A stretch of 64,000 nucleotides of DNA from Bacteroidales bacterium. GTDB taxonomy: Bacteria > Bacteroidota > Bacteroidia > Bacteroidales > UBA12481. How positions within the stretch are numbered: position 1 is the first letter of the stretch; the number at the start of each line of letters is the position of its first letter. The notes beneath the pieces were generated by a model that was given only the letters and a program-made list of their open reading frames with translations, was not told the origin of the DNA and did no database searches. Shown here piece by piece: positions 3,130 through 47,352 of the stretch. The DNA is taken from positions 9,565-73,564 of the forward strand of contig JAQUCP010000013.1 in NCBI GenBank assembly GCA_028686135.1, in the 5' to 3' direction. Made by a program: the position numbers and the translations under genes.

Positions 3130-5541
3130 ATGAAAAGCATCCGCCTTCTTCTCCTGATTTTATTCATCTTTCTGATTCAGAGCTGCCACTCAGACCGCCA
3201 CTCCGACGATCTGCACATTTGGTACGACCAGCCTGCAAACGCATCCATCCCGGATGATCCGAATGGCTGGAAAAATGATCCCGAATGGCTGAAAGCACTG
3301 CCTCTGGGTAACGGGAGCATCGGGGCGATGGTTTACGGTGATATCGGACTGGAGCGAATTCAGCTTAACGAAAAATCGTTATGGTCAGGCAGCCCTGCCG
3401 ATAACAATAACCCGGAAGCCTTTCCAGCCCTCGATTCCATCCGCAACCTCCTGTTTGCCAACCGCTACCGCGAAGCACATCAGCTGGCCGAACGCACGCA
3501 GGTGTGCCAGGGTGCCGGATCAGGGCAGGGCAATGGCGCCAACGTCCCCTATGGCTGCTTTCAAACCCTGGGCGATCTGTGGCTGGATTTCGAATATCAG
3601 AACAAGAATCAAGCTGAATATCAAAACTATCGAAGAGAACTAAACCTGATGGAAGGAGTGGGCCGCATCGAATATCAGCAATCGGGCGTCCAGTTCACCC
3701 GCGAAATCTTTGTCAGCTATCCCGATCAGGTGCTGGTGATCAGATTAACCGCCAATCAGCGCCGAAAAATCAGTTTCACTGCTCACCTGAACCGACCCGA
3801 AAAATTCTCCACCTACTCGGAGGGAGACCAACTGCTGATGGCCGGAACCCTGGATGATGGGCTGGGAGGATACGGGATGCACTACCTGGTCAGGCTCCAG
3901 GCAGTCAATGAGGGCGGCTCCATGGCGGTCACCGATGAGGGAGTTACCATTAGAGAGGCTGATGCTGTCACCCTATTGCTATCAGCCGGGACCGATTATC
4001 AGCTTAGCTACCCGACCTATTCGGGCGGTGAGTACGAAGCCCGGGCTAATCGCTTGATAATGAACGCTCAAAAGAAACCGTACCGACAGATCATTAAACA
4101 TCACCGGGACGATTTTTCGGAGCTAATGAGGCGGGTAGATTTCCGGATTAGTGGGGAAGTTGCAGACACCCTTCCCACCGACCGAAGGATCCTGGCTTTC
4201 AGGAAATCTCACGATGACCCCCGGCTGGTCGAAATGCTGTTTCAGTACGGGCGCTATCTGCTGGTCTCCTCCTCCCGGTCTGGCAGTCTGCCGGCCAACC
4301 TGCAGGGCATCTGGGCCAACAAGATCCAGACGCCCTGGAATGGAGATTATCACACGAATATCAATCTGCAAATGAACTATTGGCCGGTTGAGGTGGCCAA
4401 TCTTTCCGAGTGCCAGGAGCCTCTGACCCGCCTGGTTGAATCGTTGGTGGAACCGGGCAGAAAAACCGCTGAGGTTCATTATCGGGCCAGTGGGTGGTGT
4501 ATGCACCCCATTACCAATGTGTTCGGATACACCGCTCCGGGCGAGTCGCCCAGCTGGGGATTACACCTGGGAGCCGGAGCGTGGATGGTTCAACACCTTT
4601 GGGAACACTATGCCTTTACGGGTGACCGGGAATACCTGCAACAGGTTTATCCGGTCATGCAGGAATCGGCACAATTTTATCTCGACTGGCTGGTTAAGGA
4701 TCCGGTCAGCGGCAGGTTGGTATCCGGACCGGCAGGCTCACCCGAGAACTCTTTTTACGCCCCTGACGGAAGTACAGGATACCTCACGATGGGTCCTTCG
4801 CACGACCAGCAGCTCATTCGCGACCTGTTCGATAATCTGCTGGATGCCTCGGAAATTTTGGGGATTGAAGACGATCTGACTCGCCGGGTTGGGGCCGCCC
4901 GCGATTCCCTGCTGCCCACCGGCATCGGCTCCGACGGGCGGCTGATGGAGTGGGCCAGGGAATATGAAGAGCCGGAGCCTGGCCATCGGCACATGTCGCA
5001 CCTTTTCGCCCTGCATCCCGGACGGCAAATTACCCGGCACACGCCGGAATTGATGGATGCTGCTCGTAAATCCTTGGAATACAGACTAAAACATGGCGGC
5101 GGGCACACCGGATGGAGTGCCGCCTGGCTGGTTAACCTGTGGGCCCGGCTCGGCGATGGGAAACAAGCTAAACAAGCTCTTGAGGTGGTCCTTACCCGCT
5201 CCACCGCGCCTAACCTCTTTGGCCTCCACCCCCCGTTCCAGATCGATGGGAACTTCGGAGCCACTGCCGGCATCGCCGAGATGCTGCTGCAAAGCCATGA
5301 CGGCGAGATCGTTCTGCTCCCTGCCCTGCCAGATGCCTGGCCTGACGGCACCATCAAAGGACTCCGCGCCCGAAATGGATTTATCATCGATATCGAATGG
5401 AAAAACCACCAGCTGACTAACAGCAGAATCTATTCCCTCAACGGTGAGAAATGCACCCTCCGATATGGAGATCGTTGCCTGGAACTAACACTACGTGAGG
5501 GCCAGGAAATCCGATGGGATGGCACAAATTCTAATATCTAG
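3130..5541 (+). CDS. Glycoside hydrolase family 95 (alpha-L-fucosidase type), secreted
   Basis: The 803-aa protein has a signal peptide. The N-terminus HIWYDQPA...[15 protein letters not shown]...[13 protein letters not shown] and the overall size are typical of GH95. Confidence 0.8.
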
Positions 5542-5569: not shown

Positions 5570-6247
5570 ATGCGCCTCCTCGTTGTCGAAGACGAACCAA
5601 AAGTTGCGGAACTTCTTCGTAAAGGCCTGATTGAGAATGAATTTGATGTTGACGTCGCCTCTGATGGTCCATCAGGTTACGATCTGTTTACCCGCAATGC
5701 CTACGACTTACTGATTCTGGATGTCATCTTACCAGGCATGAGCGGAATGGTGCTAAGCCGCAAAATAAGAGATTCGAACCCCTATGTCCCGATCCTGATC
5801 CTAACTGCCCTAAGTACCACCGAGGACAAGCTGGAAGGGTTCGATGCCGGAGCCGATGATTACCTGGTTAAACCCTTCGAATTCAGTGAACTGCTGGCCA
5901 GAGTGAAGGCACTGATCAAACGGGCTGGAATGGGAACGGCCAATCTGGTTATCCTGAAAGCACACGATTTGGAACTGGATGTTAATAATAAACAAGCCAT
6001 CAGGGGAGGAAAGGTTATCTCTTTGACAGCCAAGGAGTTCTCTCTACTTGAATTTCTAATCCGTAACAAAGGTCGGGTAGTGACTCGTACGGATATCGCG
6101 ACCAAAGTTTGGGAATATGACTTTGAAAGCGGCAGCAATATTGTGGACGTGTACATTAACATTTTACGCAAAAAGATCGACCGCGACTACCCGGTAAAGC
6201 TGATTCAAACACGGATTGGGATGGGTTACTACATCGAGGCAGATTAA
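5570..6247 (+). CDS. OmpR-family response regulator (REC plus winged-helix)
   Basis: The protein starts MRLLVVEDEP, has the phospho-acceptor context LLILDVILPG, and ends with a Trans_reg_C-like tail ...IQTRIGMGYYIE. Confidence 0.9.
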   Translation: MRLLVVEDEPKVAELLRKGLIENEFDVDVASDGPSGYDLFTRNAYDLLILDVILPGMSGMVLSRKIRDSNPYVPILILTALSTTEDKLEGFDAGADDYLVKPFEFSELLARVKALIKRAGMGTANLVILKAHDLELDVNNKQAIRGGKVISLTAKEFSLLEFLIRNKGRVVTRTDIATKVWEYDFESGSNIVDVYINILRKKIDRDYPVKLIQTRIGMGYYIEAD

Positions 6248-7621
6248 ATGAAGATTCGGGATAAAATAGCCCTGCAGATCCTGGCTACCGTTGGGGTTAT
6301 CCTGCTCCTAGCCTTTATCACCATCTATCTCTCCTTTTCGAGATACCGATCAGAAGATTTCTATAGTCGCCTGGAAGCCAAAGCTCAATCGGTTGGGCAG
6401 ATGCTGGTTGAGATTGATGAAGTTGACCCGACTCTTCTTTCCAAAATGGAGCAGAATAATCCCAGCCGTCTGCATAATGAGTATATCCTTGTCTTTAAGC
6501 CCAATAAAACACCAGTCTTTTCCAATGATGAACAGAACTTGATCCGGATCACAGCGGCAGATTTCAGGGTAGCCACATACGGGGATGGCGTGCGCAGAAG
6601 GCAGGGCTCTTTTCAAATTGCCGGGACCTCTTATCAGGGAAGCGAAACTGTTCTGATCGTGTTTGTTGCCGCCGAAGATGCAGACGGATTCGATCGGATG
6701 AAATCACTCAGAAACATTCTGTTATTAGTGTTTGCCATAAGCATTCTAACCTCGGTCATTGCAGCCCGGATGTTGGCGGGAAGAGCTCTGAAACCCATTC
6801 GAACCGTCATTTCTCAGGTTGACTCCATCGGGATTGCCAGCCTGAATGCACGAGTTAACGCTGGAAGCGGTCGGGATGAGATGGCTCAGCTAGCTAACAC
6901 TTTCAACAAAATGTTGGTGAGGCTCCAAAACTCTTTCGAGATGCAAAAGGATTTCATTGGCAATGCCTCCCATGAACTCAAGACCCCTCTCACTGTCATC
7001 ACCGCTGAGCTGGAAGTGATGCTGATGCAGGAACGCACCAACGAAGAGTATAAAAAAACACTCAGGTCTGTTCGGGAAGAAATCAGCAACCTGAACGAGC
7101 TGTCGGAACGCCTGCTGATGCTGGCCCAGGCCAGCTCTGCTACCAGCAGCGCTCATTTTTCTGATCTGCGGATTGATGATCTGGTTTGGCAGGCCCGATC
7201 AGAAATACTAAAACGGGATCGCCAATGCAATGTACTTTTTGAGATGCTCGACTTTTTTGACGACGAGAAATACTTCCTGGTCAAAGGCAACGAATCTCTC
7301 TTGAAAACTGCCCTAATCAACCTGATGGAAAATGGATGCAAATACTCCTTTGACCAAAAAGTTAAGGTATTGTTGTCCATGGCTCCAGGGCATATCATTC
7401 TGGAATTCAATGATAATGGCCCCGGGATTCCAGAAGAAGAGATCCCCCGAATCTTCCAACCATTTTATCGCTCCCCTTCAACCAACAAGGTCCGTGGTCA
7501 TGGTATCGGACTCACCCTGACCGAACGAATCATCACACTGCATAACGGCACCATCACAGTTAGCTGCTCTGAAGGAAAAGGAACCACTTTCAGGGTTGTG
7601 CTGACAAGCAGCTCAGTCTAA
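6248..7621 (+). CDS. Sensor histidine kinase (two TM segments, HAMP, HisKA, HATPase_c)
   Basis: The ATG directly abuts the response-regulator stop (TAAATG). It has the H-box NASHELKTPLT, the N-box LMENGCKY and the G-boxes DNGPGI and GHGIGLTL. Confidence 0.9.
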   Translation: MKIRDKIALQILATVGVILLLAFITIYLSFSRYRSEDFYSRLEAKAQSVGQMLVEIDEVDPTLLSKMEQNNPSRLHNEYILVFKPNKTPVFSNDEQNLIRITAADFRVATYGDGVRRRQGSFQIAGTSYQGSETVLIVFVAAEDADGFDRMKSLRNILLLVFAISILTSVIAARMLAGRALKPIRTVISQVDSIGIASLNARVNAGSGRDEMAQLANTFNKMLVRLQNSFEMQKDFIGNASHELKTPLTVITAELEVMLMQERTNEEYKKTLRSVREEISNLNELSERLLMLAQASSATSSAHFSDLRIDDLVWQARSEILKRDRQCNVLFEMLDFFDDEKYFLVKGNESLLKTALINLMENGCKYSFDQKVKVLLSMAPGHIILEFNDNGPGIPEEEIPRIFQPFYRSPSTNKVRGHGIGLTLTERIITLHNGTITVSCSEGKGTTFRVVLTSSSV

Positions 7622-7622
7622 C

Positions 7623-8543
7623 TTAACCACCAACACTGGCAGCCAGTCCCTGAGCAGAAAAGATGGCGATCGCCTTTTCAATCTCTTCAGATGACGGCTC
7701 AGCTAAACCGGTTAGATCATACTCCTGATCCAGCTTGTTGTGCTTGTTAATTGCGATATCGTGGTAAGGGAGAAGACTCACCGCCTTCTTTTCGCCAGCC
7801 AGCGAAGCAACGAACCGGGCCATACTCGTGAGTTCCTCCGGGTCTGTGTTAACACCATGGATAAACGGTATCCGGATATTGATCGGAACTCCGGTAGCCG
7901 CAAGAATCTGTAAATTGCTCAAAATCTTTTCGTTAGTAACACCGATAAAGCGTTTATGCTTCTCTGGATCCATCACTTTCAGATCATAAAGAAAGAGATC
8001 GGTTCGTTTGGCTACCTCTAACAGGATGTCGGTCTTAACAAACCCGGCGGTATCCACTGCACGATGAAATCCCTCACGGCCACAGGCATCCAGTAACCCG
8101 ATCAGGAAGTCCGGCTGGAGGAGCGGCTCTCCTCCTGAAACGGTGATCCCGCCAGCCGATTGGTCAATCACCAGGCGCTCACGGCGGAAGATCTTCATGA
8201 TATCTTCCACAGTGGCCTCGCGGCCCGACATTTCCATAGCCTTGGTGGGGCACACCTCCGCGCATATCCCACACAGATCGCAGCGCTCCCAATCCGTCAC
8301 AATACCATCGGATGTCAGAGTCAGGGCATTCTGCGGACAAGCTTCGACGCACGACTGACAACCGATGCATCTGGATTTGGAGTACATCTTCTGCACTTTC
8401 GGCGAGATGCTCTCCGGGTTGTGACACCATACACAGTTCAACGAGCACCCTTTGAGAAACAGGGTAATACGGATTCCCGGGCCATCGTTGATACTGTATG
8501 GCTTGATATCAAAATAGAGGGCCTTTTTCATCTGAACAGCCAT
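7623..8543 (-). CDS. Glycyl-radical enzyme activating protein (radical SAM with two auxiliary 4Fe-4S ferredoxin motifs)
   Basis: It has CSLNCVWCHNPE (CX3CX2C), CIGCQSCVEACP and CDLCGICAEVCP. The ATG at 8543 shares one base with the GRE stop codon (TGATG). The track start at 8546 is a TTG one codon upstream. Confidence 0.9.
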   Translation of the reverse strand: MAVQMKKALYFDIKPYSINDGPGIRITLFLKGCSLNCVWCHNPESISPKVQKMYSKSRCIGCQSCVEACPQNALTLTSDGIVTDWERCDLCGICAEVCPTKAMEMSGREATVEDIMKIFRRERLVIDQSAGGITVSGGEPLLQPDFLIGLLDACGREGFHRAVDTAGFVKTDILLEVAKRTDLFLYDLKVMDPEKHKRFIGVTNEKILSNLQILAATGVPINIRIPFIHGVNTDPEELTSMARFVASLAGEKKAVSLLPYHDIAINKHNKLDQEYDLTGLAEPSSEEIEKAIAIFSAQGLAASVGG

Positions 8544-11026
8544 CAAAACGATTCATTCTGAGTCCGGTCAATGATCTCCTGCTGCAAATCATCATTCATG
8601 TCGTTGAAATAATCGCTATATCCAGCCATTCGAACGAGCAGGTCTTTGTACTCTTCAGGGTGCTTTTGGGCCAGCAGCAGCGTTGCCGTATCCACGATAT
8701 TGAACTGCACATGATGTCCACCCAAGGTGAAGTAACTCCGGATGAGCTGCCCCAGCTTGGCAATATCCTGATCACGCTTGAGCAGGCTGGGCAAGAACCG
8801 CAGGTTGAGCAGCGTGCCTCCCGACTTGGTCTGGTCAAGCTTCGACAGCGACCGGATGACAGCCGTCGGTCCGTTCGTGTCACAACCATGCGATGGGGAG
8901 GTGCCGTCCGAAATCGACTTCCCGGCCAACCGGCCATTGGGAGTGGCACCCAGAACCTTACCAAAATAGATATGACAGGTGGTCGAGAGCATGTTGATGT
9001 GGAAAGTCTCCCCCTTCGTATTGGGCTTACCATCAATGGCGCGGAACAGGTCATCATACACGCGGAGGGCGATTGAATCAGCGTATTCATCGTCATTTCC
9101 GAAGAATGGAGTCCGGTTCAGGATAAACTGACGCATCTTCTCCTCACCCTCGAAATTTCGGGCCACGGCAGAGAGCAGCTGATCCATTGCAAACGTCTTA
9201 TCTTCAAACACATGCTTCTTCAGTGTGGTCAGGCTGTCGGTCACCGTTCCCAGTCCGGTGCACTGGATATAGGTAGTATTATAGCGCGGGCCGGCATCGT
9301 AATAATCGCGCCCTTTAGCGATGCAATCGTCGATCACCACGGAGAGGAACGGTGCCGGAGCATATTTGGCAAACATCCTGTCGATGTAGTTGCTAACCCT
9401 GACCTTTTGGTCCACGATAAAGTCGAGCTGTTTCAGGAAAGCCTGGTACAGCTCTTCAAAATGTTTAAACTCTTTTGGATCGCCGCAATCGATTCCTGCG
9501 ATCTTGCCGGTGACCGGGTCAACACCCCGGTTCAGGGTGACTTCCAGGATCTTTGGAACGTTCAGGTAACCCGTCAACAGGTAGGCTTCCTTACCAAAAG
9601 CTCCTACCTCGATACATCCGCTGCAGCCCCCTTCACGGGCGTCCCGGATAGATTTACCCATGCCGATCATCTCCATGATATAGACATCCGGGTTAAATAC
9701 CGAAGGGTATCCATGTCCCTGGCGAATTACTCGGCAGGCGGCGTGGAGGAATCGATCGGGGGTTTTAGAGCTGATATGCACCGAGTTACCAGGCTGGAGA
9801 ATATGCAGTTCCTCGATCACCTCAAGCATCAGATAGGATACCTCGCTCACACCATCGGATCCATCGGGTTTAACTCCGCCGATATTGATATTGGTAAAAT
9901 CGTTATAGGTGCCACTTTCGCGGGCGGTGATGCCCACTTTTGGCGGCGCAGGGTGGTTATTTACCTTGATCCAGAAGCAAGAGAGCAACTCTTTGGCCTC
10001 ATCTCGGGTAAGCTGTCCGGATGCGATCTCCTGCTCAAAGAACGGAGCCAGGTGCTGGTCGAAGTGGCCCGGGTTCATGGCATCCCAGCCATTCAGTTCG
10101 GTGATAATACCCAGATGAACAAACCAGTACATCTGGATTGCCTCCCAGAAGTTTCTTGGAGCGTTGGCAGGCACCCACCGGCACACTTCGGCAATCTTCT
10201 CCAGCTCTTTTTTGCGAGTGGGATTGGATTCTGTTGCGGCCATCTGTTCGGCCAGATCGGCGTGACGGTTAGCAAAGATCACCATGGCATCACAGGCCAT
10301 ATCCATAGCCAGCAGCTCTTCAGCCTTATCCGTGGCTTCCGGATCATTCAGATAATCAAGCGAATCACGATGTGCACGGATCCTGGCCTGAAAATCCTTC
10401 ATCCCCATCTGATAGATTTTCCCATCGAGAGCAGTATGCCCGGGAGCCCGCTGCTCCATAAATTCGGTGAAGATCCCCGCCTCATAGGCAGCTTTCCACT
10501 CCGTGGGGACATGTTTGAAAATTCGCTCACGCATGGTGCGACCTTTCCAATAGGGGATGACCTCACGTTCGTATATCTTAATATCCTCAGGATCAACCAA
10601 ATATCGCTGTTGGTCGCGTGTGTTAAGCACCTCGAAATCCTCCACAGAATGACAGTTCAGCTCCGGGAAAGTAGGCACAGCTTTCGGTTTTGGGCCCCGT
10701 TCCCCGACGATCAGCTCATCATCACCGATATAGATGGTTTTCCGGGTGCAATGGTCAACAAACTGGAGTGCCCGCATCACCGGAACAGAGTACTTTCCGC
10801 CATACTCCTTGTAAAAGGCGGTCTGGTGAAGAGCGCGTTCAATACTGATGCTGGCAGGAGTTTCTACGCTGAGCTTCCTCAGCCGCTGAATACGAGGATT
10901 CATTCCCGGGCTCGTGGAGCCGGATTTGGAATCATAAAAGTTACCCTCCGAATTTGGCTGGCGCTCGGCCAGGCAGGTCAATTCAGACTCGTTGGAAGGA
11001 TCCGTGATCGGTTGTTGTGCGTTCAT
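8543..11026 (-). CDS. Glycyl radical enzyme of the PFL2/glycerol-dehydratase-like (C-x-E eliminase) branch; substrate unassigned
   Basis: The 827-aa protein has the C-terminal glycyl motif LLVRMAGYSDYF (Gly802 is the complement of 8621-8623). The Cys loop is EGGCSGCIEVG (Cys471/Glu473). The overall sequence resembles the C. butyricum DhaB1-type enzyme as I recall it. Confidence 0.88.
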   Translation of the reverse strand: MNAQQPITDPSNESELTCLAERQPNSEGNFYDSKSGSTSPGMNPRIQRLRKLSVETPASISIERALHQTAFYKEYGGKYSVPVMRALQFVDHCTRKTIYIGDDELIVGERGPKPKAVPTFPELNCHSVEDFEVLNTRDQQRYLVDPEDIKIYEREVIPYWKGRTMRERIFKHVPTEWKAAYEAGIFTEFMEQRAPGHTALDGKIYQMGMKDFQARIRAHRDSLDYLNDPEATDKAEELLAMDMACDAMVIFANRHADLAEQMAATESNPTRKKELEKIAEVCRWVPANAPRNFWEAIQMYWFVHLGIITELNGWDAMNPGHFDQHLAPFFEQEIASGQLTRDEAKELLSCFWIKVNNHPAPPKVGITARESGTYNDFTNINIGGVKPDGSDGVSEVSYLMLEVIEELHILQPGNSVHISSKTPDRFLHAACRVIRQGHGYPSVFNPDVYIMEMIGMGKSIRDAREGGCSGCIEVGAFGKEAYLLTGYLNVPKILEVTLNRGVDPVTGKIAGIDCGDPKEFKHFEELYQAFLKQLDFIVDQKVRVSNYIDRMFAKYAPAPFLSVVIDDCIAKGRDYYDAGPRYNTTYIQCTGLGTVTDSLTTLKKHVFEDKTFAMDQLLSAVARNFEGEEKMRQFILNRTPFFGNDDEYADSIALRVYDDLFRAIDGKPNTKGETFHINMLSTTCHIYFGKVLGATPNGRLAGKSISDGTSPSHGCDTNGPTAVIRSLSKLDQTKSGGTLLNLRFLPSLLKRDQDIAKLGQLIRSYFTLGGHHVQFNIVDTATLLLAQKHPEEYKDLLVRMAGYSDYFNDMNDDLQQEIIDRTQNESF

Positions 11027-11267
11027 TTAACATTTTTTATCAATTGCTTTCATCGGGCAAAATCACCAACTAAACCCATTTGGGGGAAAAAGTACAGGCA
11101 TGGGGAAAGGCACGCTAAACCAACGCTATACCATCAGACAGCGAAAAAGGCGACGATAGGCCTTAAGAAGAGTACTATGAGTGTACGGTGCCATACAAGG
11201 CAAAATTACGAAAAAATTGATAACTCTTTTTCCTATCTTGCACGATAAAACAAATTGCACCATTCTT

Positions 11268-13421
11268 ATGAAAAAACTGACCTCTTTATTCGTAGGTATT
11301 TTGCTGATCTTTAGTACTTCAGCAAAGGCTGACGAGGGCATGTGGCTTCTGCCTTTAATTCAGAAACTGAATATGGCCAGAATGACCGAGCTAGGCCTTC
11401 AACTGACAGCCGAAGACATTTACAGTATCAACAACTCCAGCATTAAGGATGCCATCGTCATTTTTGGTGGTGGGTGTACCGGTGAGATCGTATCTGACCA
11501 AGGATTGTTGCTGACGAACCACCACTGTGGTTATGGTTCTATCCAGTCGCATTCAACCGTGGAGCATGACTACCTCACCAATGGTTTCTGGGCTATGTCG
11601 AAAGAGGAGGAACTCCCGACACCAGGCCTGGCTGTGACGTTCCTGGATTACATTGAAGATGTTACCGAACGAGTCAATGCCAAGCTGAACGACAACATGA
11701 CAGAACAGGAGCGTGCCAACGCCATTCGCCAGGAATCACAGGCCATCCAAGCCGAAGTCGAAACCAACCAGTTCCGCTCCGCCAGGGTGCAGGCCTTTTA
11801 CGGCGGCAACCAGTTCTTCCTGCTTGTTTACACCCAATACCGCGATGTTCGTATGGTGGGAGCTCCCCCGAGCTCCGTCGGCAAGTTCGGTGCTGACACC
11901 GACAACTGGATGTGGCCCCGCCAAACGGGCGACTTCTCTGTATTTCGCGTCTATATGTCAAAAGACGGCCAACCAGCAACTTACGCCCCGGATAACGTTC
12001 CGCTGAAACCTAAACACTACTTGCCGGTTTCGGTAAAAGGAGTGAAAGAAGGCGACTTCTCCATGGTTCTGGGTTATCCCGGAGGAACAACCCGGTATAT
12101 GACCTCCTTCGAAGTGGAAGATGAACTGAAACACCTCCACCCAAACCGTATTAAGATCCGGAATATCAGGCAGGAAATTATGCTCGCCGATATGCTCGCC
12201 GATCAGAAAGTAAAAATTCAATACTCATCAAAGTATTCAGGATCAACGAACTACTACAAATTCTCCATCGGGCAGTCTGCCAGTCTCAAACGGATGAAGG
12301 TGGCCGACAAAAAACGCGCTCTTGAAGAGCAGTTTGTACAATGGATCGCCAAAGATGCCGGCCTGCAAAATAAATACGGAGAAGCCCTGCCATTGATTAA
12401 AAATGCCATCGAAGGTCGGGAAATGTATAACCATGTCAATCAATACTTCTCCGAAAGCCTGCAAAGAGGAACTGAAATCATCAGCTTTGCCGGCCAGCTG
12501 GATGGCGCCCTCTCACGTATCTTGGAAAACGAAAAAGATCCTGAAAAAATTAAGGCATCGACCGATCGGATTAAGAATAACCTCGATGGGATGTTCAAAG
12601 ATTATAATATGCCAACCGACCATAAGATCACGGTGGCGATGTTCAAAGTCTTTGCCGAAGATATCGATCCTGAATTCCACCCCGATGTGTATCAATTGAT
12701 CGCCAAAAAGTATAAGGGCGATTCAAAACGGTTCGTGGATAAGATGTTCGAAACATCCATCTTCTGCGATCAGGATAAACTGATGGCTTTCTTGGATAAT
12801 CCCAGCAAAAAAGTGCTCGATAAAGACCTCGCTGTCATTGCCGCACGCTCCATCAACCAAAAAGCTGGCGAAGTCAGAAGAGAAGCAGGTCAATTCAGCA
12901 CCGACCTGGCTCGCGGACAGCGCCTCTGGATCGATGGACTGATGAAAATGCAGAAAGACCGCGTCTTCTATCCGGATGCCAATTTCACCATGAGGATGAC
13001 CTACGGATCAGTTCTCTCCTATGAACCCCAGGATGCCGTAGTGTACAAGTACTACACCACCCTCGACGGCGTGATGCAGAAAGAGGTTCCGGGCGACTGG
13101 GAATTTGATGTGCCGCAAAAACTGAAAGACCTGTATAATGCCAAAGATTATGGCATCTACGGCGAAGGCGACGTCATGAAAGTATGCTTCATCTCCAATA
13201 ATGATATCACCGGCGGTAATTCCGGATCCCCTGTCCTCAATGCTAAAGGTGAACTGATCGGACTGGCATTCGACGGTAACTGGGAAGCTATGAGCGGCGA
13301 TATCGCTTTCGAGCCAGACCTGCAGCGTACCATCAGCGTCGATGTCCGGTACGTCCTATTCATCATGGATAAATATGCCGGAGCTAAACATCTCGTCGAT
13401 GAGATGACCTTGGCCTATTAG
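11268..13421 (+). CDS. S46-family dipeptidyl-peptidase (DPP7/DPP11-like serine peptidase)
   Basis: The signal peptide MKKLTSLFVGILLIFSTSAKA is followed by the mature N-terminus DEGMWL. It has LLTNHHCG (catalytic His) and DITGGNSGSPVLN (catalytic Ser). The ATG at 11268 is preferred over the track start at 11181. Confidence 0.88.
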   Translation: MKKLTSLFVGILLIFSTSAKADEGMWLLPLIQKLNMARMTELGLQLTAEDIYSINNSSIKDAIVIFGGGCTGEIVSDQGLLLTNHHCGYGSIQSHSTVEHDYLTNGFWAMSKEEELPTPGLAVTFLDYIEDVTERVNAKLNDNMTEQERANAIRQESQAIQAEVETNQFRSARVQAFYGGNQFFLLVYTQYRDVRMVGAPPSSVGKFGADTDNWMWPRQTGDFSVFRVYMSKDGQPATYAPDNVPLKPKHYLPVSVKGVKEGDFSMVLGYPGGTTRYMTSFEVEDELKHLHPNRIKIRNIRQEIMLADMLADQKVKIQYSSKYSGSTNYYKFSIGQSASLKRMKVADKKRALEEQFVQWIAKDAGLQNKYGEALPLIKNAIEGREMYNHVNQYFSESLQRGTEIISFAGQLDGALSRILENEKDPEKIKASTDRIKNNLDGMFKDYNMPTDHKITVAMFKVFAEDIDPEFHPDVYQLIAKKYKGDSKRFVDKMFETSIFCDQDKLMAFLDNPSKKVLDKDLAVIAARSINQKAGEVRREAGQFSTDLARGQRLWIDGLMKMQKDRVFYPDANFTMRMTYGSVLSYEPQDAVVYKYYTTLDGVMQKEVPGDWEFDVPQKLKDLYNAKDYGIYGEGDVMKVCFISNNDITGGNSGSPVLNAKGELIGLAFDGNWEAMSGDIAFEPDLQRTISVDVRYVLFIMDKYAGAKHLVDEMTLAY

Positions 13422-13480
13422 GACCATCTAATTAACTCAGAAGGAATTAGGTTAAGCAAAAAACATATTTTGAATCTGAT

Positions 13481-14053
13481 ATGAAAATTAATCTGGTTGA
13501 TATCCTGACTGTTTTTATGGTCATGTTTGCCGTGATTGATATTCTTGGAAGCATTCCTATCATTCTGAGTATTAAAGCAAAAGGAGGCAAGATAAAAGCC
13601 GGCCAGGCGACATTCGTGTCCCTGGCCGTCTTCCTCGCCTTCCTGTTTGTCGGAGAACAAATTCTCGGCCTGTTTGGCGTTGATGTCTCTTCCTTTGCCA
13701 TTGCAGGATCATTAATCATCTTTATCATGGCATTGGAGATGCTCCTTGGACACGAATTTTTTAAAAATGACGCTCCCGAAGGAGCCTCCATCGTGCCCAT
13801 CGCCTTCCCCCTGATCGCTGGTGCCGGATCTATTACCACCCTAATCTCCCTTCGGTCGCAATACGATTATATTAACATCATTATCGCCCTGATCCTTAAC
13901 ATGATAGTGGTTTACATCGTCCTCAAAGCGACCTATCGATTCGAGCGTTTCCTCGGTCCGACAGGACTGGTGATTTTGAAGAAGTTTTTCGGGATTATCC
14001 TGTTGGCCATTGGAATCAAGCTGTTCATCTCAAATACCGGGATACAGATTTAG
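13481..14053 (+). CDS. MarC-family (UPF0056/NAAT) integral membrane protein
   Basis: The 190-aa protein has six hydrophobic segments. It carries FAIAGSLIIF and PIAFPLIAGAGSIT motifs typical of the MarC family. Confidence 0.75.
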   Translation: MKINLVDILTVFMVMFAVIDILGSIPIILSIKAKGGKIKAGQATFVSLAVFLAFLFVGEQILGLFGVDVSSFAIAGSLIIFIMALEMLLGHEFFKNDAPEGASIVPIAFPLIAGAGSITTLISLRSQYDYINIIIALILNMIVVYIVLKATYRFERFLGPTGLVILKKFFGIILLAIGIKLFISNTGIQI

Positions 14054-14129
14054 TGCAGGAGAGCGGAGGAGGGATACCGCCAGCTCCTGATTCATCCCGA
14101 AATTTTTCCAGAAGGGGCAGGAGGGAATC

Positions 14130-14609
14130 ATGAAAATTACCATTCACACGGACGGAGCAGCGAGGGGAAATCCCGGGCCAGGCGGCTACGGGGTGGTGCT
14201 CCAGGCGGGCAATCATCGTAAAGAGCTGTCGGCCGGATACCGTCTGACCACCAATAACCGGATGGAGCTGCTGGCGGTCATCGTTGGGCTGGAAGCCCTG
14301 AAAAAAGAGAATCGCGAAGTCACCATCTATACTGATTCACGCTATGTTGCAGATGCGGTTGAAAAAGGATGGGTCTTCACCTGGGAGCGTAATCAGTTCA
14401 AAAAGAAGAAGAACCCTGACCTCTGGCAACGGTTTCTTGAGGTGTACCGGCAACACCGGGTCCGGTTTGTCTGGGTCAAAGGACATGCCGATCATGTCGA
14501 AAATATTCGATGTGACCAATTGGCTGTGGAAGCTTCCAATCGCAAGGAGCTGCTGGCGGATACCGTTTATGAGTCAGGCCTCGCAGCAGATCAGGGAAAT
14601 CTTTTTTAA
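14130..14609 (+). CDS. rnhA: Ribonuclease HI
   Basis: The protein has MKITIHTDGAARGNPGPGGYG, NNRMELLAV, IYTDSRYV and VKGHADHVENIRCDQLA, covering the DEDD catalytic positions. Confidence 0.9.
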   Translation: MKITIHTDGAARGNPGPGGYGVVLQAGNHRKELSAGYRLTTNNRMELLAVIVGLEALKKENREVTIYTDSRYVADAVEKGWVFTWERNQFKKKKNPDLWQRFLEVYRQHRVRFVWVKGHADHVENIRCDQLAVEASNRKELLADTVYESGLAADQGNLF

Positions 14610-14653
14610 CTTGCGCAACTCATAGTTCTTATCATTTTACAAACAGAACCCAT

Positions 14654-17600
14654 ATGAATTTCAACCGGATCAACAACATAATCGGCTGGGTAGTGTTCGC
14701 TATCGCTGCGCTGGTTTATCTCATGACCATTGAACCCACGGCTTCCTTCTGGGATTGTGGTGAGTTTATTGCCACTGCCCAGAATATGGAGATCGGGCAC
14801 CCCCCGGGCGCTTCCTTTTGGATGCTGCTGGGAAAATTCTTTTCTCTGTTTGCCTTTGGTAATGGTATGGCTGTGGCGAAAACCATGAATATCATGTCGG
14901 CACTCGCCTCCGCCTTCACCATCCTGTTCCTGTTCTGGACGATCACCCACTTGGCACGGAAAATATTCGCAAAAGAACCTAAACTATCTCAAGGTCAGCT
15001 CTTTGCAATCATGGGAGCAGGCGTTGTCGGAGCTCTGGCTTATACTTTCTCCGATTCATTTTGGTTCAGCGCTGTCGAGGCCGAAGTGTACGCCATGTCA
15101 TCCCTCTTTACCGCTGCCGTATTCTGGGCAATCCTTAAATGGGAAAGCGTGGCTGATGAACCGGGAAGCGACCGGTGGCTACTCCTAATCGCCTATCTGA
15201 TGGGCCTCTCCATCGGCGTTCATATTCTGAACCTGTTGGCTGCCCCGGCTATCGTGCTGGTTTATTACTACAAAAGATATCCGGTTACCCGCAAAGGCGT
15301 GGCAACCGCCCTCCTTGCCTCGGTGCTGCTGCTGGCGATCATGCTCTATGGCGTCATCCAGCTTACCCTCAAAATTGCCACCTGGTTTGAGTTGTTCTTC
15401 GTCAATACAGTGGGACTCCCCTATAATGCTGGCGCCATTATTTTCCTTATTCTCTTGATCGCCGCTCTTGCCTACGCGGTCATCCGTAGTCAGCAAACCG
15501 GTAAAGTGATCCTCAAAACACTGCCACTGAACACCGTGTTCCTGATGGTCACCTTCATCATGATCGGATACTCCTCCATCCTGATTATCCCGATCCGTTC
15601 GGCAGCAAACCCTCCACTGGATGAGAATAACCCCGATAACACCCTTAGCCTCCTCTCTTACGTCAACCGCGAAGTGTATGGCCAACGACCCCTGATCTAT
15701 GGTGAGTATTTCAACGCGCCGGTTGAGAATTATAAGGATGGGAAAAATATTTATTACAAAAAGGATGGAAAATATGCCGTAGCGGATACCCGCACAAAAT
15801 ACGAGTACGACAAACGGTTCATGACCCTATTCCCAAGGATGTACAACAGCCAAGATCCAAGGTATGCTCAGGATTACAAAAACTGGGGCAAGATCAAGGG
15901 AAGACCTGTCACCGTCGCCGGAATGGACGGCCAAAATGAGATTCGAAACGTGCCTACCTTCGGTGAAAACCTGCGGTTCTTTATTAATTACCAGCTCGGC
16001 CATATGTATTTCCGGTATTTCATGTGGAACTTTGCCGGTCGGCAGAATGATGAACAGGGATTCGGCGATATCCGTAACGGGAACTGGATCACCGGTATCA
16101 AATTCCTCGATGCCATGCGATTGGGACCCCAGGATAACCTCCCAAAAAGCGTCACTGAAAACAAAGGACGAAACAAATACTTTGCTCTCCCGCTGATCCT
16201 CGGACTCATAGGTGCCTGGTTCTTCTTCAAGCGTGAGAAGAAGGGGTTCTGGATTGTCACCCTGCTGTTTGTCATGACGGGGATTGCCATCATCGTCTAT
16301 TTAAATGAGGTACCTCGAACGCCCAGGGAACGGGATTATGTCTATGTCGGGTCCTTTTACGCTTTCTCCATCTTTATTGGGATGGGTGTTCTCTATCTTT
16401 TTGATCTATTGAACAAAAAGCTCAAGACTAGCCTCTCAGCAGTAATCGCCACCGTGGCAGCCCTTGCCTTGGTGCCGGGGATCATGGCTGCAGAAAACTG
16501 GGACGATCACGACCGCTCCGGGCGCTACACCTCCCATGATTTTGCCTATAACTATCTCATTGGCCTGGATGAAAACGCCCTGATCTTTACTAACGGCGAT
16601 AACGACACCTTCCCGCTATGGTACATCCAGGAAATAGAAGGATTGCGTACTGATGTTAGAGTGTGCTGTATGCCTTTCCTTCCTCAGGATTGGTATATCG
16701 ACCAACTAAAAAGGAAATATTACGAATCAGAACCGCTGCCCCTCTCGATGGAATTTGAGCAGTACCGCCAGGGTAAGCGGGGGTTGGTTCCCATCATCGA
16801 CCGGGTGAAACGACCTACCAGTCTGAAGCAGGTCATGGAATTTGCCCTAAGCGATGATCCTGGTGCTATGGTACCCTCCAGCACCGGCCGACAGTTTAAC
16901 TATCTCCCCGCCGGCACCTTTGTGATCCCTGTTGATCGTGAAAAAGTCGTCGCCAATGGTACCGTCAGCCCCGAACGAGCCGCCGAAATCGATTCCGTCA
17001 TCGTCTGGAGCATGCTACGCGAAGGCGAAGAGCAGGGTAATGTCTATAAAGATGAGTTTGTGATGCTCGACATCCTGGCTCATAACGACTGGGAAAGGCC
17101 ACTATACTATACCACTCCCGGACAATCTGGTTCAGTAAAACTGGATAACTACCTGGAACTCCATGGGTTAAGCTTCCGGCTCATCCCCATCAGGGGCGAA
17201 CGCGCAACCTCCCTTGATGGCCAAGTAAATACCACCATCCTGTACGACAATCTGATGAACAAATTCCGGTACACTAACTTCAACAACCCTAAGGTGTACC
17301 AGGATGAGAACTGCCGCCGGATGATGCAAAACCTGAAAAACAATTTTAACCGCCTGGCTGAAACCCTGATCGTAGAGGGCCAACCGAATAAAGCAGTTGA
17401 GGTACTCACCAAGCTCGAGGAGGTCATTCCAAAGGATGTCCTGGGTTATACCTATCTGGATGTTGACAATGTGGATCTGTGGTATCAGGCTGGTGACCGA
17501 ACCAGGGGGCTGATGGAAGCCAGGAATGTTTTTGAATATATACGGGATCAAATGGATTACTTCATGAATCTCCCGTCAAGATACGTGCTGGCCATGAACC

Positions 17601-17804: not shown

Positions 17805-18923
17805 TCAAATATATCCCGGAAATTCCAGGTGAACAGGCCCTTTGCCACCTTGTATCTCCCTGGCTAACTGCAACGTATCGGTGAACAGGTGGACCTCATT
17901 GCGAATGGTGATCCCGGTCAGGCCCCGAAGTGCCTCCATAGCCGGATCATCCTCATGGATATGAATCTGAATCAGCGAATATTTGCCTCCCAGGTTCTCG
18001 TTATTGATCGATCGAATCAACGAAGCTAACGCAGCCGTGGAATCATCATGAGCCCACAAGGCCAGGGTGAGCTGAGGCAGAGGCTGATTGTTACTGATGC
18101 GCGCCGGCATCCGGGTAAACAGTGAGACTAAGCGGATCAGCGTAGTCACCAATCTGATTGGCAGCTGCTTTCGGGTTACCCAATAACGCTTGAACGGCTC
18201 CTCGTCCCAGGCTGCCACCACTGCCTTGATCTTGCCATCCAGCCGGGCCACACGAAAAGCACTCAGGTCAAGCCCTCTAATTTCGCGTGTGTAAGCAAGC
18301 AACTGCTCCTCCGTTATCCTGGGTGCCAATCGATATTTCGAATAAAAACGATTGTATAAAGCCACCAGCTCAGGAATATCCCCCGGCTCAGGTACTCCAA
18401 TCGAAAACCGTGGGTCGGGGCGCCGAAAACGAATCGGAACAATATTAAATATCTTATTATCACCCAAGTACAGAGAAGCCGGAATGCCTCCGCGACCTTT
18501 GGTGAAAGCCATAGGAGCCTCATTATTCTTCAATAAGGTAGCTAATCCAAGCCTCACCCCACTGTTCCGCTCCCGCTCCAACACCGGTTTCACCATCCGA
18601 TAGGCCGTGATCCCCTGTCGAAAATCCGGATCTAGCCTGAAATCAAGAAAATAAGCCGTCCTTAACGGTTCATCCCGAAAGTAGAGATCAAAATGTAGCA
18701 CCCCAAGAAGACCAACCACCCGGTCAGCCGATTTGGCTATCGCATGATAAGACTTCTGATCCAACAGCCGATGCATCCGGTTAAACTGCGGAGAACGATC
18801 AGGATACATGGAGATGATGCCCGCTTGAATACAGCGGGGAGATAACTCCAAAACCCCCTTGTTATCGGAGTCTTCGGCCCAGGAAATCTGAATACTCGGT
18901 ATTGTTTTAGTTTTGTTCGGCAT
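17805..18923 (-). CDS. Hypothetical two-domain GNAT-like acyltransferase (paralogue A)
   Basis: This 372-aa protein is clearly alignable by eye with the ORF at 36896-38011. Matching blocks include ISWAEDSDN / LSWRAIGDSEN, DRSPQF / DRSPDLF, RVVGLLGV / RLVGFVMI, KIFNIVPI / RIFNILVL, DIPELVALY / DVPEIVRLL, AVVAAWD / GVCSAWD and EDDPAMEALRGL / EGDPLMEATRGF. Confidence 0.55.
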   Translation of the reverse strand: MPNKTKTIPSIQISWAEDSDNKGVLELSPRCIQAGIISMYPDRSPQFNRMHRLLDQKSYHAIAKSADRVVGLLGVLHFDLYFRDEPLRTAYFLDFRLDPDFRQGITAYRMVKPVLERERNSGVRLGLATLLKNNEAPMAFTKGRGGIPASLYLGDNKIFNIVPIRFRRPDPRFSIGVPEPGDIPELVALYNRFYSKYRLAPRITEEQLLAYTREIRGLDLSAFRVARLDGKIKAVVAAWDEEPFKRYWVTRKQLPIRLVTTLIRLVSLFTRMPARISNNQPLPQLTLALWAHDDSTAALASLIRSINNENLGGKYSLIQIHIHEDDPAMEALRGLTGITIRNEVHLFTDTLQLAREIQGGKGPVHLEFPGYI

Positions 18924-26648: not shown

Positions 26649-28409
26649 CTAATTCAGGCGCGCAACCGGATATCTGGCCACCCATTTATTCGCTAACCCC
26701 AGCTTGGTGTAAGCAAAATACATCTGAGCCATACGGTTGCCTGCCAGCTTCGGATCAGCTGCAACAGCTTCATCCAACAGTCGCCGAGCCCCTGGATTCT
26801 CATTCAAATAGGCAAAGATTCGGTCTTCAAGCACCGGATGTGGCGAGAACCACTCACGATCCTCAAGACAAGGATCAAAGAAATTCCAACGGAAGTAAGA
26901 ATCGGGTGCCTCTGGTTCTAACATGTTCACAATAAAGTAGTTCGACTCCTGATTTACAGGAACCAGATAATCGCCACGATAGTATTGGATTCGCTGGATC
27001 TCCTTGCGGGTGGTGAAACGATCGTGAAAATGGTGGCCATTACTTGGTCGAGCCGACCACACCAAGTTGTCGATGTAATAAACCTCCACTTCCATGAGCG
27101 AGTCGCGGTCGAGACGGATCATCTCAATCTGGTTGATTTTGAGACGTTCAATCACTTCACTCCAGGCTTGGGGTACCACATAAAAATTGGGAGCAGTGAC
27201 CATCTTGGATGGTTTATACTCATCATAAAAGGGAATAGTGGTGGTAAAAGGTTTGCTGTAGTCATAAATCGACCGCACTTCGCCAGTCAGCGGACTGATG
27301 TCGGTTCCACGTTCAAAGCCTCTAAATTCAATGGTTTCGAATTTGGAGCTATCCAACTCATAATCCAGAGGAAACTCTCTTTTCGTCTTAGCCATCTGCC
27401 GCGATTCTTCTCTTACCTGGAGAATGGCATCCGTGTTCTCATTGGAAAATCCGATCATAGTAATCATGAAATGATACAATCCTTTTACCCGGTCAACATA
27501 GGGTTGATAGCACAGGTTCTCGATCATCTGCGGTAGTGAATGAAAGAGGAGAGTATATCCGGTGGAGAAGCGAGGAGTCTGCACATAAGATTCAATTCCC
27601 TCCTCGGGCGACTGGTTAGTGTACTCAGCGTAGGGGATCATTGGATAGGGCGTAGTAGCCATTTTTTTGTACATCGCCGGGATCATGGTACCCTTAAAGA
27701 AACGTCCTACTGGCTCAGGCATGCTATTGTGCTGTGCAGGTAAATAAGTGACAACATGCTGATGATCAGATCCATTCGTTGCATGAGTATCTAGAAAAAT
27801 ATCGGGATCCCACTGACGGAACAGTTTTACGAACGATTTGGCATTTTCTGTGTCGAGCTTCACAAAATCCCGATTCAGGTCGAGGTTCTTCGCATTTCCG
27901 CGGTAGCCAGGATTGGTAGGCTCCGGCTGGTTGGTCCGGTGCCATGGGTTCTGGTAAAGCAGTCCACCAATGCTATACACTGGAATGATGCACACCACCG
28001 TGCTATCGAGCAGCTGACGCATCCCGTTGTGATTCCGGAGGATGTCATCTGCCACGATCATACTGGCCTCCATGCCGTCAGGTTCGCCCGGATGGATGGC
28101 GTTCATAATCATCACAATGGTCTTCCCCGATTTCCGGATCCGATCAGGATCAAACTGCCGGTCGGCACTCATCACGAACAGATGTAATGGCTTGCCGCAA
28201 TCGGTAAGACCGCCCTCCAACAACCTTGCTTCGGGCCAGGCCTCATCCAGTTTCTGATAATTGGCAATAACTTCATCATAGGTGGATGATATCTTCTGTT
28301 CATAGTTGAGTTGGACTAGAGGCTCATGATCAATAGCTTGCTTAGAGGAAGAGTTGCAACCACCAAAAATTATTGCAGTTAACAAAAGTAGGGAGAGATT
28401 GCGTAGCAT
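26649..28409 (-). CDS. M14-family zinc carboxypeptidase lipoprotein with a C-terminal extension
   Basis: The protein starts MLRNLSLLLLTAIIFGGCNSS (lipobox). It has the HxxE zinc motif in NAIHPGEPDG and a later DTHA. The ATG at 28409 is preferred over the track start at 28490. Confidence 0.8.
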   Translation of the reverse strand: MLRNLSLLLLTAIIFGGCNSSSKQAIDHEPLVQLNYEQKISSTYDEVIANYQKLDEAWPEARLLEGGLTDCGKPLHLFVMSADRQFDPDRIRKSGKTIVMIMNAIHPGEPDGMEASMIVADDILRNHNGMRQLLDSTVVCIIPVYSIGGLLYQNPWHRTNQPEPTNPGYRGNAKNLDLNRDFVKLDTENAKSFVKLFRQWDPDIFLDTHATNGSDHQHVVTYLPAQHNSMPEPVGRFFKGTMIPAMYKKMATTPYPMIPYAEYTNQSPEEGIESYVQTPRFSTGYTLLFHSLPQMIENLCYQPYVDRVKGLYHFMITMIGFSNENTDAILQVREESRQMAKTKREFPLDYELDSSKFETIEFRGFERGTDISPLTGEVRSIYDYSKPFTTTIPFYDEYKPSKMVTAPNFYVVPQAWSEVIERLKINQIEMIRLDRDSLMEVEVYYIDNLVWSARPSNGHHFHDRFTTRKEIQRIQYYRGDYLVPVNQESNYFIVNMLEPEAPDSYFRWNFFDPCLEDREWFSPHPVLEDRIFAYLNENPGARRLLDEAVAADPKLAGNRMAQMYFAYTKLGLANKWVARYPVARLN

Positions 28410-28547
28410 GACATTTGAAAATTTAGTTTTGGTAAAAATAGCGAACTTCCAAGGTTTTCTCCATGCCCTTCTGGTTTTTGATCTAATCATGTGGGGAATT
28501 CTGCATGGGAGGCCGAACTAAGCAGTAGCAGCTCTTGAGCAGCGGGG

Positions 28548-33537: not shown

Positions 33538-34122
33538 ATGCGCATTATCCGGTTTTTCATTCCGCCTCCGGCCTGGCGATTGCCGGTCATCCTGGCACTA
33601 GCTGTCTTCTCAGGTCTTTTTGTGTTTGCCTTTTATGTTTCCAAAGCCCCCTCCTATCTTTCTGATAAACCGGAGACTTGCGTTAATTGCCATATTATGG
33701 CTCCACAGTATGCTACCTGGTCGCACAACTCACATCGTCAATACACTCATTGCAATGACTGCCACGTACCTCATAATAATATCCTGAACAAATACTACTT
33801 TAAGGCAAAAGACGGGATGAGGCATGCTACCATGTTCACTCTCAGGCTGGAACCGCAGGTTATCCACATCAAAAAAGCAGGCCAAAAGGTGGTCCAGAAT
33901 AACTGTATCCGGTGCCATGAGGACCTCCTGACAGAGGATCCAATTAAAGACCTCACCCGCCAGGCTCACGATTACCGGAAAGAGCGGCAATGCTGGAGCT
34001 GCCACCGGGAGACCCCTCACGGGCGGGTTAACAGCCTCTCGAGTGTTCCCTATGCCCGCGTACCCCTGCCCCAAAGCCCGGTACCAGATTGGCTTAAAAA
34101 ACTGTTGAAAAACGAACAATAA
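33538..34122 (+). CDS. nrfH: Cytochrome c nitrite reductase small subunit NrfH (tetrahaem NapC/NirT family)
   Basis: It has an N-terminal TM helix and four CXXCH motifs: CVNCH, CNDCH, CIRCH and CWSCH. Confidence 0.92.
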   Translation: MRIIRFFIPPPAWRLPVILALAVFSGLFVFAFYVSKAPSYLSDKPETCVNCHIMAPQYATWSHNSHRQYTHCNDCHVPHNNILNKYYFKAKDGMRHATMFTLRLEPQVIHIKKAGQKVVQNNCIRCHEDLLTEDPIKDLTRQAHDYRKERQCWSCHRETPHGRVNSLSSVPYARVPLPQSPVPDWLKKLLKNEQ

Positions 34123-34130
34123 CTACCCCG

Positions 34131-38011: not shown

Positions 38012-38188
38012 TTTTGGTTTATCGGCAAGTTTTGGTTCAGGCTCAGGAAATAGGTTCAGAGCTAGTTGCATCCTCATCAAAATGATCAACGAAAGATAGC
38101 AAAACAAATGATCCAGCATTTCGATGGAATGGGGTGGCTCCCGAAATCCGGGAATAATTTCTAAATTGGTGACCTCGTAAAACGCACC

Positions 38189-45341: not shown

Positions 45342-45375
45342 TTTTATAGATTTAAATATTTGTAAATTATAATTG

Positions 45376-46839: not shown

Positions 46840-46887
46840 TGGGTGTTGTATTAGGTTAAGTTAACTATGTGATTTTATGTTCTTTAA

Positions 46888-47352
46888 TTAAGCAATCGAA
46901 CTCTTTCGATCAACCCTGATCGAGCGATGCTTGGATGGATCTTCAAACCGTCCACTAATCTGCAATCTGACCTCATCTATGGTGAATCCAGGAATGGTGT
47001 GCTCCTCGAAATAGAGTTCCAGCATCCGAGTCAACTCCTCGTTGTAATAATCCTCAATAGAACTACAATCGGTACAATAGATGTGATGATGTGGATCAAG
47101 AAAGATATCGTACCGCATCACATCACTCTCGGTTTTTACTTTCATCACCATACCCCTTTTAACAAGGGTCTCCAGGATGTGATAAATAGTTCCGGTGGCA
47201 ACGTTTGGCTGGGTTTTATGAACAATGCTGGCCACCTCCTCTACGGTAGGATGAGATCTCAGAGAAAAGAGAGCCTCCACTACCGCCAACCGCTGCGGAG
47301 TAATCCGCATCCCATGCTCGCTCAACAAATTCCTGATTTTTGTTTTATCCAT
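46888..47352 (-). CDS. Fur-family metalloregulator (PerR-like by context)
   Basis: It has ITPQRLAVVEAL, an HTH region, and the HHHIYCTDC motif. It is the first gene of an operon with catalase and peroxiredoxin. Confidence 0.8.
   Translation of the reverse strand: MDKTKIRNLLSEHGMRITPQRLAVVEALFSLRSHPTVEEVASIVHKTQPNVATGTIYHILETLVKRGMVMKVKTESDVMRYDIFLDPHHHIYCTDCSSIEDYYNEELTRMLELYFEEHTIPGFTIDEVRLQISGRFEDPSKHRSIRVDRKSSIA

Follow-up and report, generated by a model that had tools for sequence, protein, structure and literature searches.

Which substrate does a glycyl radical enzyme (GRE) use when no accessory pathway gene stands beside it? The question is raised by a stretch of 64,000 nucleotides from a Bacteroidales bacterium (contig JAQUCP010000013.1; hereafter the window, meaning the whole stretch analysed), in which the gene for an 827-residue GRE is directly followed by that of its activase. 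An original prediction, made from the letters alone, had described this pair as context-less and its substrate as unassigned. Our analysis leads to a different answer: judging from sequence comparisons, the pair very probably encodes a functional trans-4-hydroxy-L-proline dehydratase (HypD) and its activating enzyme (HypD-AE), acting on trans-4-hydroxy-L-proline (abbreviated Hyp). The enzyme gene and its mapped sites are as follows.

8543..11026, minus strand: hypD, predicted trans-4-hydroxy-L-proline dehydratase (GRE), 827 aa (Pfam, NCBIfam HypD equivalog, 6VXC alignment)
8621..8623, minus strand: codon of Gly802, predicted glycyl radical site within RMAGYS, equivalent to C. difficile Gly765 (translation, mapping)
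9608..9616, minus strand: Cys471-Ile472-Glu473, the CxE thiyl loop, equivalent to C. difficile Cys434-Val435-Glu436 (translation, mapping)
10082..10087, minus strand: Trp314-Asp315, equivalent to HypD Trp277-Asp278 (mapping; invariant in 120 of 120 homologues)
9896..9916, minus strand: Ser371, Asp376 and Phe377, equivalent to HypD Ser334, Asp339 and Phe340, the carboxylate-binding Ser, water-bridged Asp and proline-stacking Phe (mapping)

Assignment to the HypD family

The hypD product matches the Pfam domains PFL-like (PF02901, E-value 8.5e-230) and Gly_radical (PF01228, E-value 3.2e-33), and its translation contains the glycyl motif LLVRMAGYSDYF and the thiyl loop DAREGGCSGCIEVGAFGKE. It has the PFL-like barrel and C-terminal glycine-radical domain of the GRE superfamily, the fingerprint RVxG[FWY] being read here as R-M-A-G802-Y, and the C-x-E cysteine loop (G-C471-I-E473) of the 1,2-eliminase branch (PFL2/DhaB1). 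Cys471 is encoded by the complement of 9614-9616 and Glu473 by that of 9608-9610; Gly802 and the string GGCSGCIE are both found in 120 of 120 homologues.

Within this branch, the protein scores 1173.8 bits against the NCBIfam equivalog NF043068, trans-4-hydroxy-L-proline dehydratase (cut-off 1100), over profile positions 2-783 of 784. The next-best NCBIfam GRE family reaches 620 bits, and other GRE equivalogs stay far under their cut-offs: HpsG (sulfopropanediol dehydratase) at 569 for 1000, HpfG at 460 for 1000, CutC (TIGR04394) at 496 for 1050 and indoleacetate decarboxylase at 395 for 1100. Against all solved structures, the best match is HypD of C. difficile (6VXC/6VXE; 970 bits, E-value 1e-290), the enzyme reportedly described by Levin et al. 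2017 and Backman et al. 2020. All other solved GREs give 495 bits or less: CutC 495, the glycerol dehydratase 1R8W 487, the N-methyl-hydroxyproline dehydratases HpzG and HpyG (8IOF/8ID1) 425 and 421, the diol dehydratase 5I2A 418, isethionate lyase 412 and the D-hydroxyproline lyase HplG 396. The protein aligns with 6VXC over 785 residues with zero gaps and 51.3% identity. Relatives at 77-79% identity, for instance in Maribellus sediminis and Draconibacterium, are named trans-4-hydroxy-L-proline dehydratase by NCBI.

Are the residues that handle Hyp in the C. difficile enzyme also kept? We took them from the structure and mutagenesis study of HypD (PMC7077986) and transferred them through this alignment, in which each window residue is the C. 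difficile residue plus 37. All 14 mapped residues (F152, R156, H160, W277, D278, K326, S334, D339, F340, C434, E436, Y450, T645 and G765 in C. difficile numbering) are identical here, and none of them varies in the 120 closest homologues from the database. Catalytic residues in HypD are His160, Asp278, Asp339, Glu436, Cys434 and Gly765, of which the first four are each essential by mutagenesis (PMC7077986); this essential set is present in the window protein as H197, D315, D376 and E473. The roles described for the others are carboxylate binding (Ser334, Tyr450, Thr645), ring packing (Phe152, Trp277, Phe340) and charge (Arg156, Lys326) (PMC7077986), and their counterparts S371, Y487, T682, F189, W314, F377, R193 and K363 are again identical and clade-invariant.

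Three of these positions are restricted to the family. Ser334 of HypD takes the place of a Phe conserved in glycerol dehydratase (Phe333), propanediol dehydratase (Phe338), CutC and IslA, while Asp278, the proposed catalytic acid/base touching both the amine and the hydroxyl of Hyp, and Asp339 are strictly conserved in HypD and not in other GRE eliminases (PMC7077986). They therefore tell HypD apart from other GRE eliminases, and the window protein has Ser371 at the Phe position together with the two HypD-only aspartates, Asp315 and Asp376. Since the HypD cut-off is passed, the match to HypD is tight and all mapped active-site residues are kept, the substrate can no longer be called unassigned.

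The mechanism that we propose is taken from homology to the C. difficile enzyme (PMC7077986), to which this study adds family membership and residue conservation; the activity itself is likewise deduced from homology. The activase would split S-adenosylmethionine at the [4Fe-4S] cluster of its CX3CX2C motif and turn Gly802 of HypD into a stable glycyl radical by removing a hydrogen from it. This radical would be relayed to Cys471, and the resulting thiyl radical would abstract the C5 hydrogen of bound Hyp, whose carboxylate would be held by Ser371, Tyr487 and Thr682 and whose ring would have Phe377 stacked upon it. Asp315, with His197, Glu473 and a water network via Asp376, would deprotonate the amine and protonate the leaving 4-hydroxyl, lost as water, before the hydrogen is handed back to C4 to give delta-1-pyrroline-5-carboxylate (P5C). 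Conversion of the P5C is probably left to a housekeeping P5C reductase or dehydrogenase whose gene lies outside the window. As for the Hyp, its probable origin is Hyp-containing peptides that are imported or trimmed in the periplasm, and a secreted S46 dipeptidyl-peptidase encoded by the adjacent gene possibly helps to supply it.

Directly downstream of hypD, as in C. difficile, lies the activase, with the same three-cluster architecture as its C. difficile counterpart:

7623..8543, minus strand: hypD-AE, predicted radical-SAM glycyl-radical activating enzyme, 306 aa from the ATG at 8543 (Radical_SAM and two Fer4 motifs)
8424..8447, minus strand: CX3CX2C, predicted radical-SAM [4Fe-4S] site, C34/C38/C41 (translation)
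8250..8369, minus strand: two CX2CX2CX3C ferredoxin-like cluster motifs, C60-C70 and C89-C99 (translation, Fer4 matches)

The activase open reading frame (ORF) reaches 8546 if counted from a TTG there, and this numbering is used for its cysteines. The A of the hypD stop codon TGA is at the same time the first base of the activase ATG (8543-8541; TGATG at 8541-8545, a one-base overlap); the activase is translationally coupled to hypD. It passes the cut-off of the GRE-activase subfamily TIGR02494 (325.9 bits for 174.35). The JGI gene calls on the source contig (JGI metagenome 3300001682, 112 kb) agree with ours, giving 827 aa for hypD, 306 aa for the activase and 717 aa for the S46 gene.

Much of the original prediction is borne out by these results. 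The 827-residue ORF, the motifs, the coordinates of Gly802, Cys471 and Glu473, the activase motifs and the TGATG overlap were all confirmed on translation, and the placement in the C-x-E eliminase branch holds. It was right to refuse a transfer of the glycerol dehydratase function, and right in its second guess, a peptide-derived substrate of the hydroxyproline type. Its headline falls by the very outcome that it had named as refuting it: the protein matches a characterised GRE tightly and, in the residue mapping onto a known structure that had been called for, keeps all of the binding residues.

Genomic setting in the window and in related loci

The pair is followed by convergent genes for a histidine kinase (6248-7621), a response regulator (5570-6247) and a GH95 fucosidase (3130-5541), and preceded by the divergent S46 peptidase gene. 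Our Pfam scans covered the listed ORFs of at least 150 aa in the 64-kb window and the smaller ORFs of its two end gaps; four short gaps (324-490 bp) remained unscanned. Within this scope, we found no microcompartment shell gene, no aldehyde or alcohol dehydrogenase, no P5C reductase or dehydrogenase and no obvious Hyp transporter. C. difficile hypD differs in having an adjoining proC gene, for P5C reductase, and a proline reductase context, and its host is not, like that of the window, an environmental Bacteroidota-like organism. The P5C reductase that adjoins the pair in the clostridial Hyp-to-Pro Stickland module (hypD-hypD-AE-proC) is therefore missing here, but this gene does not define HypD: proC is absent from beside hypD in most hypD genomes, as is usual outside Clostridiales, and HypD is common in Bacteroidetes (PMC6219649). 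The accessory-free setting is thus not anomalous. As neither proC nor proline reductase is adjacent, this organism probably does not employ Hyp as a Stickland electron acceptor.

To see what accompanies hypD elsewhere, we collected 80 related loci (76-87% identity) from metagenome-assembled genomes and isolates, and clustered their ORFs all-vs-all with those of the window (81 loci in total, the related ones bearing labels of the type L002). The taxa include Maribellus, Draconibacterium, Carboxylicivirga, Tangfeifania, Ignavibacteriota, Desulfuromonadales, Campylobacterota, Anaerolineae, KSB1 and others. The activase is the only conserved neighbour, present in 78 of the 81 loci and mostly immediately 3' of hypD, with a few ORFs intervening in about seven. 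The window's histidine kinase, response regulator and GH95 genes form singleton clusters, absent from all 80 related loci. For the 219 genes no more than two positions from hypD in the 80 loci, the 25 most frequent families that were listed include no P5C reductase, and neither P5C dehydrogenase nor proline reductase nor a dedicated transporter family recurs near hypD in the clustering and Pfam censuses (two genes on either side).

Several side observations concern these loci. HypD proteins 76-80% identical to that of the window occur at ten loci spread over many phyla, comprising Verrucomicrobiota, Campylobacterota (including a complete Arcobacter chromosome), Desulfuromonadales, Anaerolineae, Deferribacteres and KSB1, which suggests that the two-gene cassette spread horizontally among sediment anaerobes. 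The closest relatives (L002, L004, L005 and L006, 84-85% identity) have a convergent gene for a multihaem cytochrome of about 499 aa (NapC/NirT-like) 3' of the activase; as this stands where the window has its two-component system, the downstream context of the window would result from a recent rearrangement. Three Bacteroidales loci (L035, at 13438-15518, L055 and L060) carry genes for a DHDPS-family lyase and a class-V aminotransferase directly 3' of hypD-AE on the same strand, the latter having aspartate-glyoxylate aminotransferase as its best NCBIfam match, below cut-off. This couple brings to mind the HOGA/AGXT pair of the aerobic hydroxyproline-to-glyoxylate route, although it does not obviously fit with a dehydratase that removes the 4-hydroxyl. 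A 678-codon ORF runs antisense to hypD in the window (9212-11248, plus strand), and shorter antisense ORFs overlapping hypD cluster across 68 of the 81 loci; they are most likely a by-product of codon usage in a highly conserved gene, not a real gene.

The region between hypD and the S46 gene is the remaining element of the locus:

11027..11267, no strand assigned: divergent intergenic region hypD/S46 gene, 241 bp, presumed promoters (sequence)

A promoter and terminator scan of 7300-11400, in which Bacteroidota promoters are not modelled, returned no convincing sigma-70 site in this region, and an Rfam scan of the whole window returned no RNA element.

Elsewhere in the window we observed an nrfH/nrfA-type cytochrome c nitrite reductase (33538-35603, plus strand), a cluster of peroxiredoxin, catalase and Fur-family genes (44634-47352, minus strand), an M14 carboxypeptidase-like protein (26649-28490, minus strand) and a tricorn-like S41 protease of 1035 aa (54894-58001, minus strand). 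This content suggests an aerotolerant, peptide-degrading, nitrite-reducing organism of the Bacteroidota type. A 372-aa ORF (17805-18923, minus strand) has zero Pfam matches, and a 407-aa ORF (36896-38119, minus strand) has sub-threshold GNAT matches only.

Clade-specific features and alternative substrates

With C. difficile HypD the window protein shares its domain architecture, the length of the homologous core, the Gly/Cys/Glu radical machinery and the Hyp-binding and acid/base residues. It differs by about 37 extra N-terminal residues, some 22 of which are conserved in its clade, and by GCIE for GCVE and RMAGY for RVAGY.

10904..10969, minus strand: N-terminal extension, residues 20-41, consensus PERxPxAEGNFY-x6-IGPG (conserved at protein level)

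The motif of the extension, P-E-R-x-P/A-x-A-E-G-N-F-Y-x6-I-G-P-G, is found in about 115 of the 120 close homologues, from several phyla, and is lacking in C. difficile HypD. Matches obtained with tblastn in other genomes begin at query residues 17-21, so that, with residues 20-41 conserved as protein, the upstream start is real and the extension is under selection. We had also considered Met42, which would give a C. difficile-like length, as the true start, and rejected it on account of this clade-wide conservation. The PERxPxAEGNFY motif might mediate a subfamily-specific interaction. As for the two substitutions, the Ile of G-C-I-E is present in 120 of 120 homologues, and the Met of R-M-A-G-Y, correctly singled out by the original prediction as standing where most members have Val, in 118 of 120, with Val in the other two. 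Both the V-to-M and the V-to-I change are conservative and clade-wide, not peculiar to this gene.

What speaks against HypD? Both the conserved extension, a feature of the clade's own, and the clade's Ile and Met at positions held by Val in CxE and RVxG do so to some degree. The best equivalog of the activase is the HypD activase NF043069, at 343.8 bits for a cut-off of 425; this threshold is the one exception, every other testable HypD-defining feature being shown by the pair. The sole characterised reference used comes from outside this environmental clade and is 51% identical. No P5C-consuming gene and no Hyp or peptide transporter adjoins the pair, which leaves the window silent on the downstream pathway. 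Finally, an AlphaFold2 model built on a 38-sequence alignment was unusable, with a mean pLDDT (predicted local distance difference test) of 62.6 and values below 50 for the barrel core, both radical loops and the extension; the cause is that none of the available homologues falls below 77% identity, and we relied on the ungapped crystal-structure alignment instead.

Alternatively, the enzyme could belong to a distinct environmental HypD-like subfamily acting on a related substrate, such as a different isomer of hydroxyproline, an N-alkylated hydroxyproline or a dipeptide that contains Hyp. The clade-wide PERxPxAEGNFY extension, GCIE and RMAGY would fit this scenario, as would the 51% identity to the assayed C. 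difficile enzyme and the existence of several hydroxyproline-type GREs of differing stereo- or N-methyl specificity (PMC13450708). We nevertheless regard it as improbable. Around the Hyp site, all 14 residues of the first and second shells are identical and clade-invariant, the curated HypD threshold is passed and the V-to-I and V-to-M changes are conservative. The N-methyl-Hyp and D-Hyp enzymes, which share the superfamily, the CxE loop and related pyrrolidine substrates, are distant (396-425 bits against 970 for HypD), and it is the residue set of HypD, not that of these enzymes, that the window protein retains. That the gene is a true orphan, with a substrate that cannot be inferred, is less probable still: the scanned window does lack accessory pathway genes (proC, transporter, dehydrogenase), but most hypD genomes are reported to have no proC beside the gene (PMC6219649), and the equivalog score, the 6VXC match and the residues count against this reading as they count for HypD.

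The least credible of the alternatives, to which we give next to no weight, is a 1,2-propanediol or glycerol dehydratase for fucose-derived propanediol, which the original prediction had tied to the window's two fucosidases. GH95 is about 2 kb away and GH29 (41958-43325) also lies within the window, and the enzyme does belong to the same C-x-E eliminase branch: the B12-independent glycerol and 1,2-propanediol dehydratases (1R8W, 5I2A) and CutC share with it the PFL2 branch and the logic of radical 1,2-elimination. They score 418-495 bits, however (5I2A 418 and 1R8W 487, against 970 for HypD), their active-site Phe is replaced by the HypD-specific Ser371, and the HypD-only Asp315 and Asp376 are present. 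None of the marks of a diol or glycerol dehydratase (active-site Phe, closest similarity, often a shell or aldehyde dehydrogenase context) was found in the protein or among the scanned ORFs. The neighbours were described correctly in that prediction, Pfam confirming GH95 with a convergent two-component system and a divergent S46 gene, and so was the lack of shell, aldehyde or alcohol dehydrogenase and P5C reductase genes among the scanned ORFs. Being convergent, GH95 and the two-component system do not form one transcription unit with hypD, and in the conservation check that had been suggested, GH95, the histidine kinase and the response regulator recur in 0 of the 80 related loci; an S46 gene is found no more than two genes away from hypD at 6 of the 81. 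The residue and neighbourhood tests effectively refute the propanediol reading, and we retain HypD.

Exopeptidases beside hypD

The S46 neighbour deserves separate attention.

11268..13421, plus strand: S46 dipeptidyl-peptidase, 717 aa, with signal peptide and DPP7-type S1 pocket (Peptidase_S46, E-value 6e-257)

Its signal peptide is MKKLTSLFVGILLIFSTSAKA and its true start the ATG at 11268. The best NCBIfam match is Dpp7 (858 bits, below the cut-off of 1200), while the overall closest solved structures are those of the Asp/Glu-specific DPP11 (627 bits). At the specificity position occupied by Arg673 in PgDPP11, the protein has a DPP7-like Gly (AFDGNWE), as have the full-length S46 neighbours of L002, L005, L015 and L018. 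An identity as DPP11 was rejected on these two grounds, the Gly at this position and the best NCBIfam model, and the P1 preference is more likely to be broad or hydrophobic.

The six loci with an S46 gene within two genes of hypD present two arrangements: in the window, L002, L005 and L009 the gene is upstream and divergent, and in L015 and L018 it follows downstream with the orientation of hypD. Apart from the activase, the neighbours of hypD that recur are mostly exopeptidases, of other families too. Xaa-Pro aminopeptidases or dipeptidases with M24 and AMP_N domains are found in six loci (among them L016, L038, L052, L054 and L066), on the hypD strand in five of the six; in L016 the gene (12454-13848) sits between hypD and the activase. 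M1 aminopeptidases are found in four loci (L054, L064 and L065 among them) and M28 aminopeptidases with a PA domain in six (L021, L040, L049 and L051 among them). Flanking of hypD by exopeptidase genes on its own strand is recurrent in the related genomes. The four exopeptidase clusters total 22 occurrences, 20 within two genes of hypD and 2 further out. In unbiased Pfam censuses, about 15 of the 219 genes up to two positions from hypD belong to these four families, and each family has at most one member among the 126 control genes at positions 4-6 of the same loci.

Are these peptidases partners of HypD? We treat the pattern as suggestive, since shared phylogeny makes the loci non-independent and the families of the cluster-based test were picked after the data had been seen. 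With that reserve, exopeptidases are over-represented beside hypD in the related loci, in keeping with a substrate derived from peptides. That the window's S46 gene is a functional partner supplying peptides is plausible, if unproven; our literature search found no report of a link between HypD and S46 or other peptidases. A more far-reaching and quite tentative idea, which we hold to be possible rather than probable, is that, in anaerobes of sediments and other environments, hypD and its activase form a mobile two-gene module that has come to sit next to exopeptidases again and again, or has recruited them (DPP7-type S46 as in the window, M24B Xaa-Pro, M1 and M28); these would free Hyp from collagen or plant-glycoprotein peptides.

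For enzyme discovery the locus carries little weight, HypD being a characterised, structurally solved and widespread GRE. The enzyme is already known, it stands in a typical accessory-free setting, and standard annotation pipelines would give the gene its correct name. The useful outcome is a negative one, in that a false 'orphan GRE' lead is removed, and what is new is confined to the exopeptidase association and the N-terminal extension. The release of Hyp from peptides has been flagged as an unknown step in the HypD literature (PMC6219649), and the secreted or cytoplasmic exopeptidases that recur next to hypD are here nominated as candidates for it.

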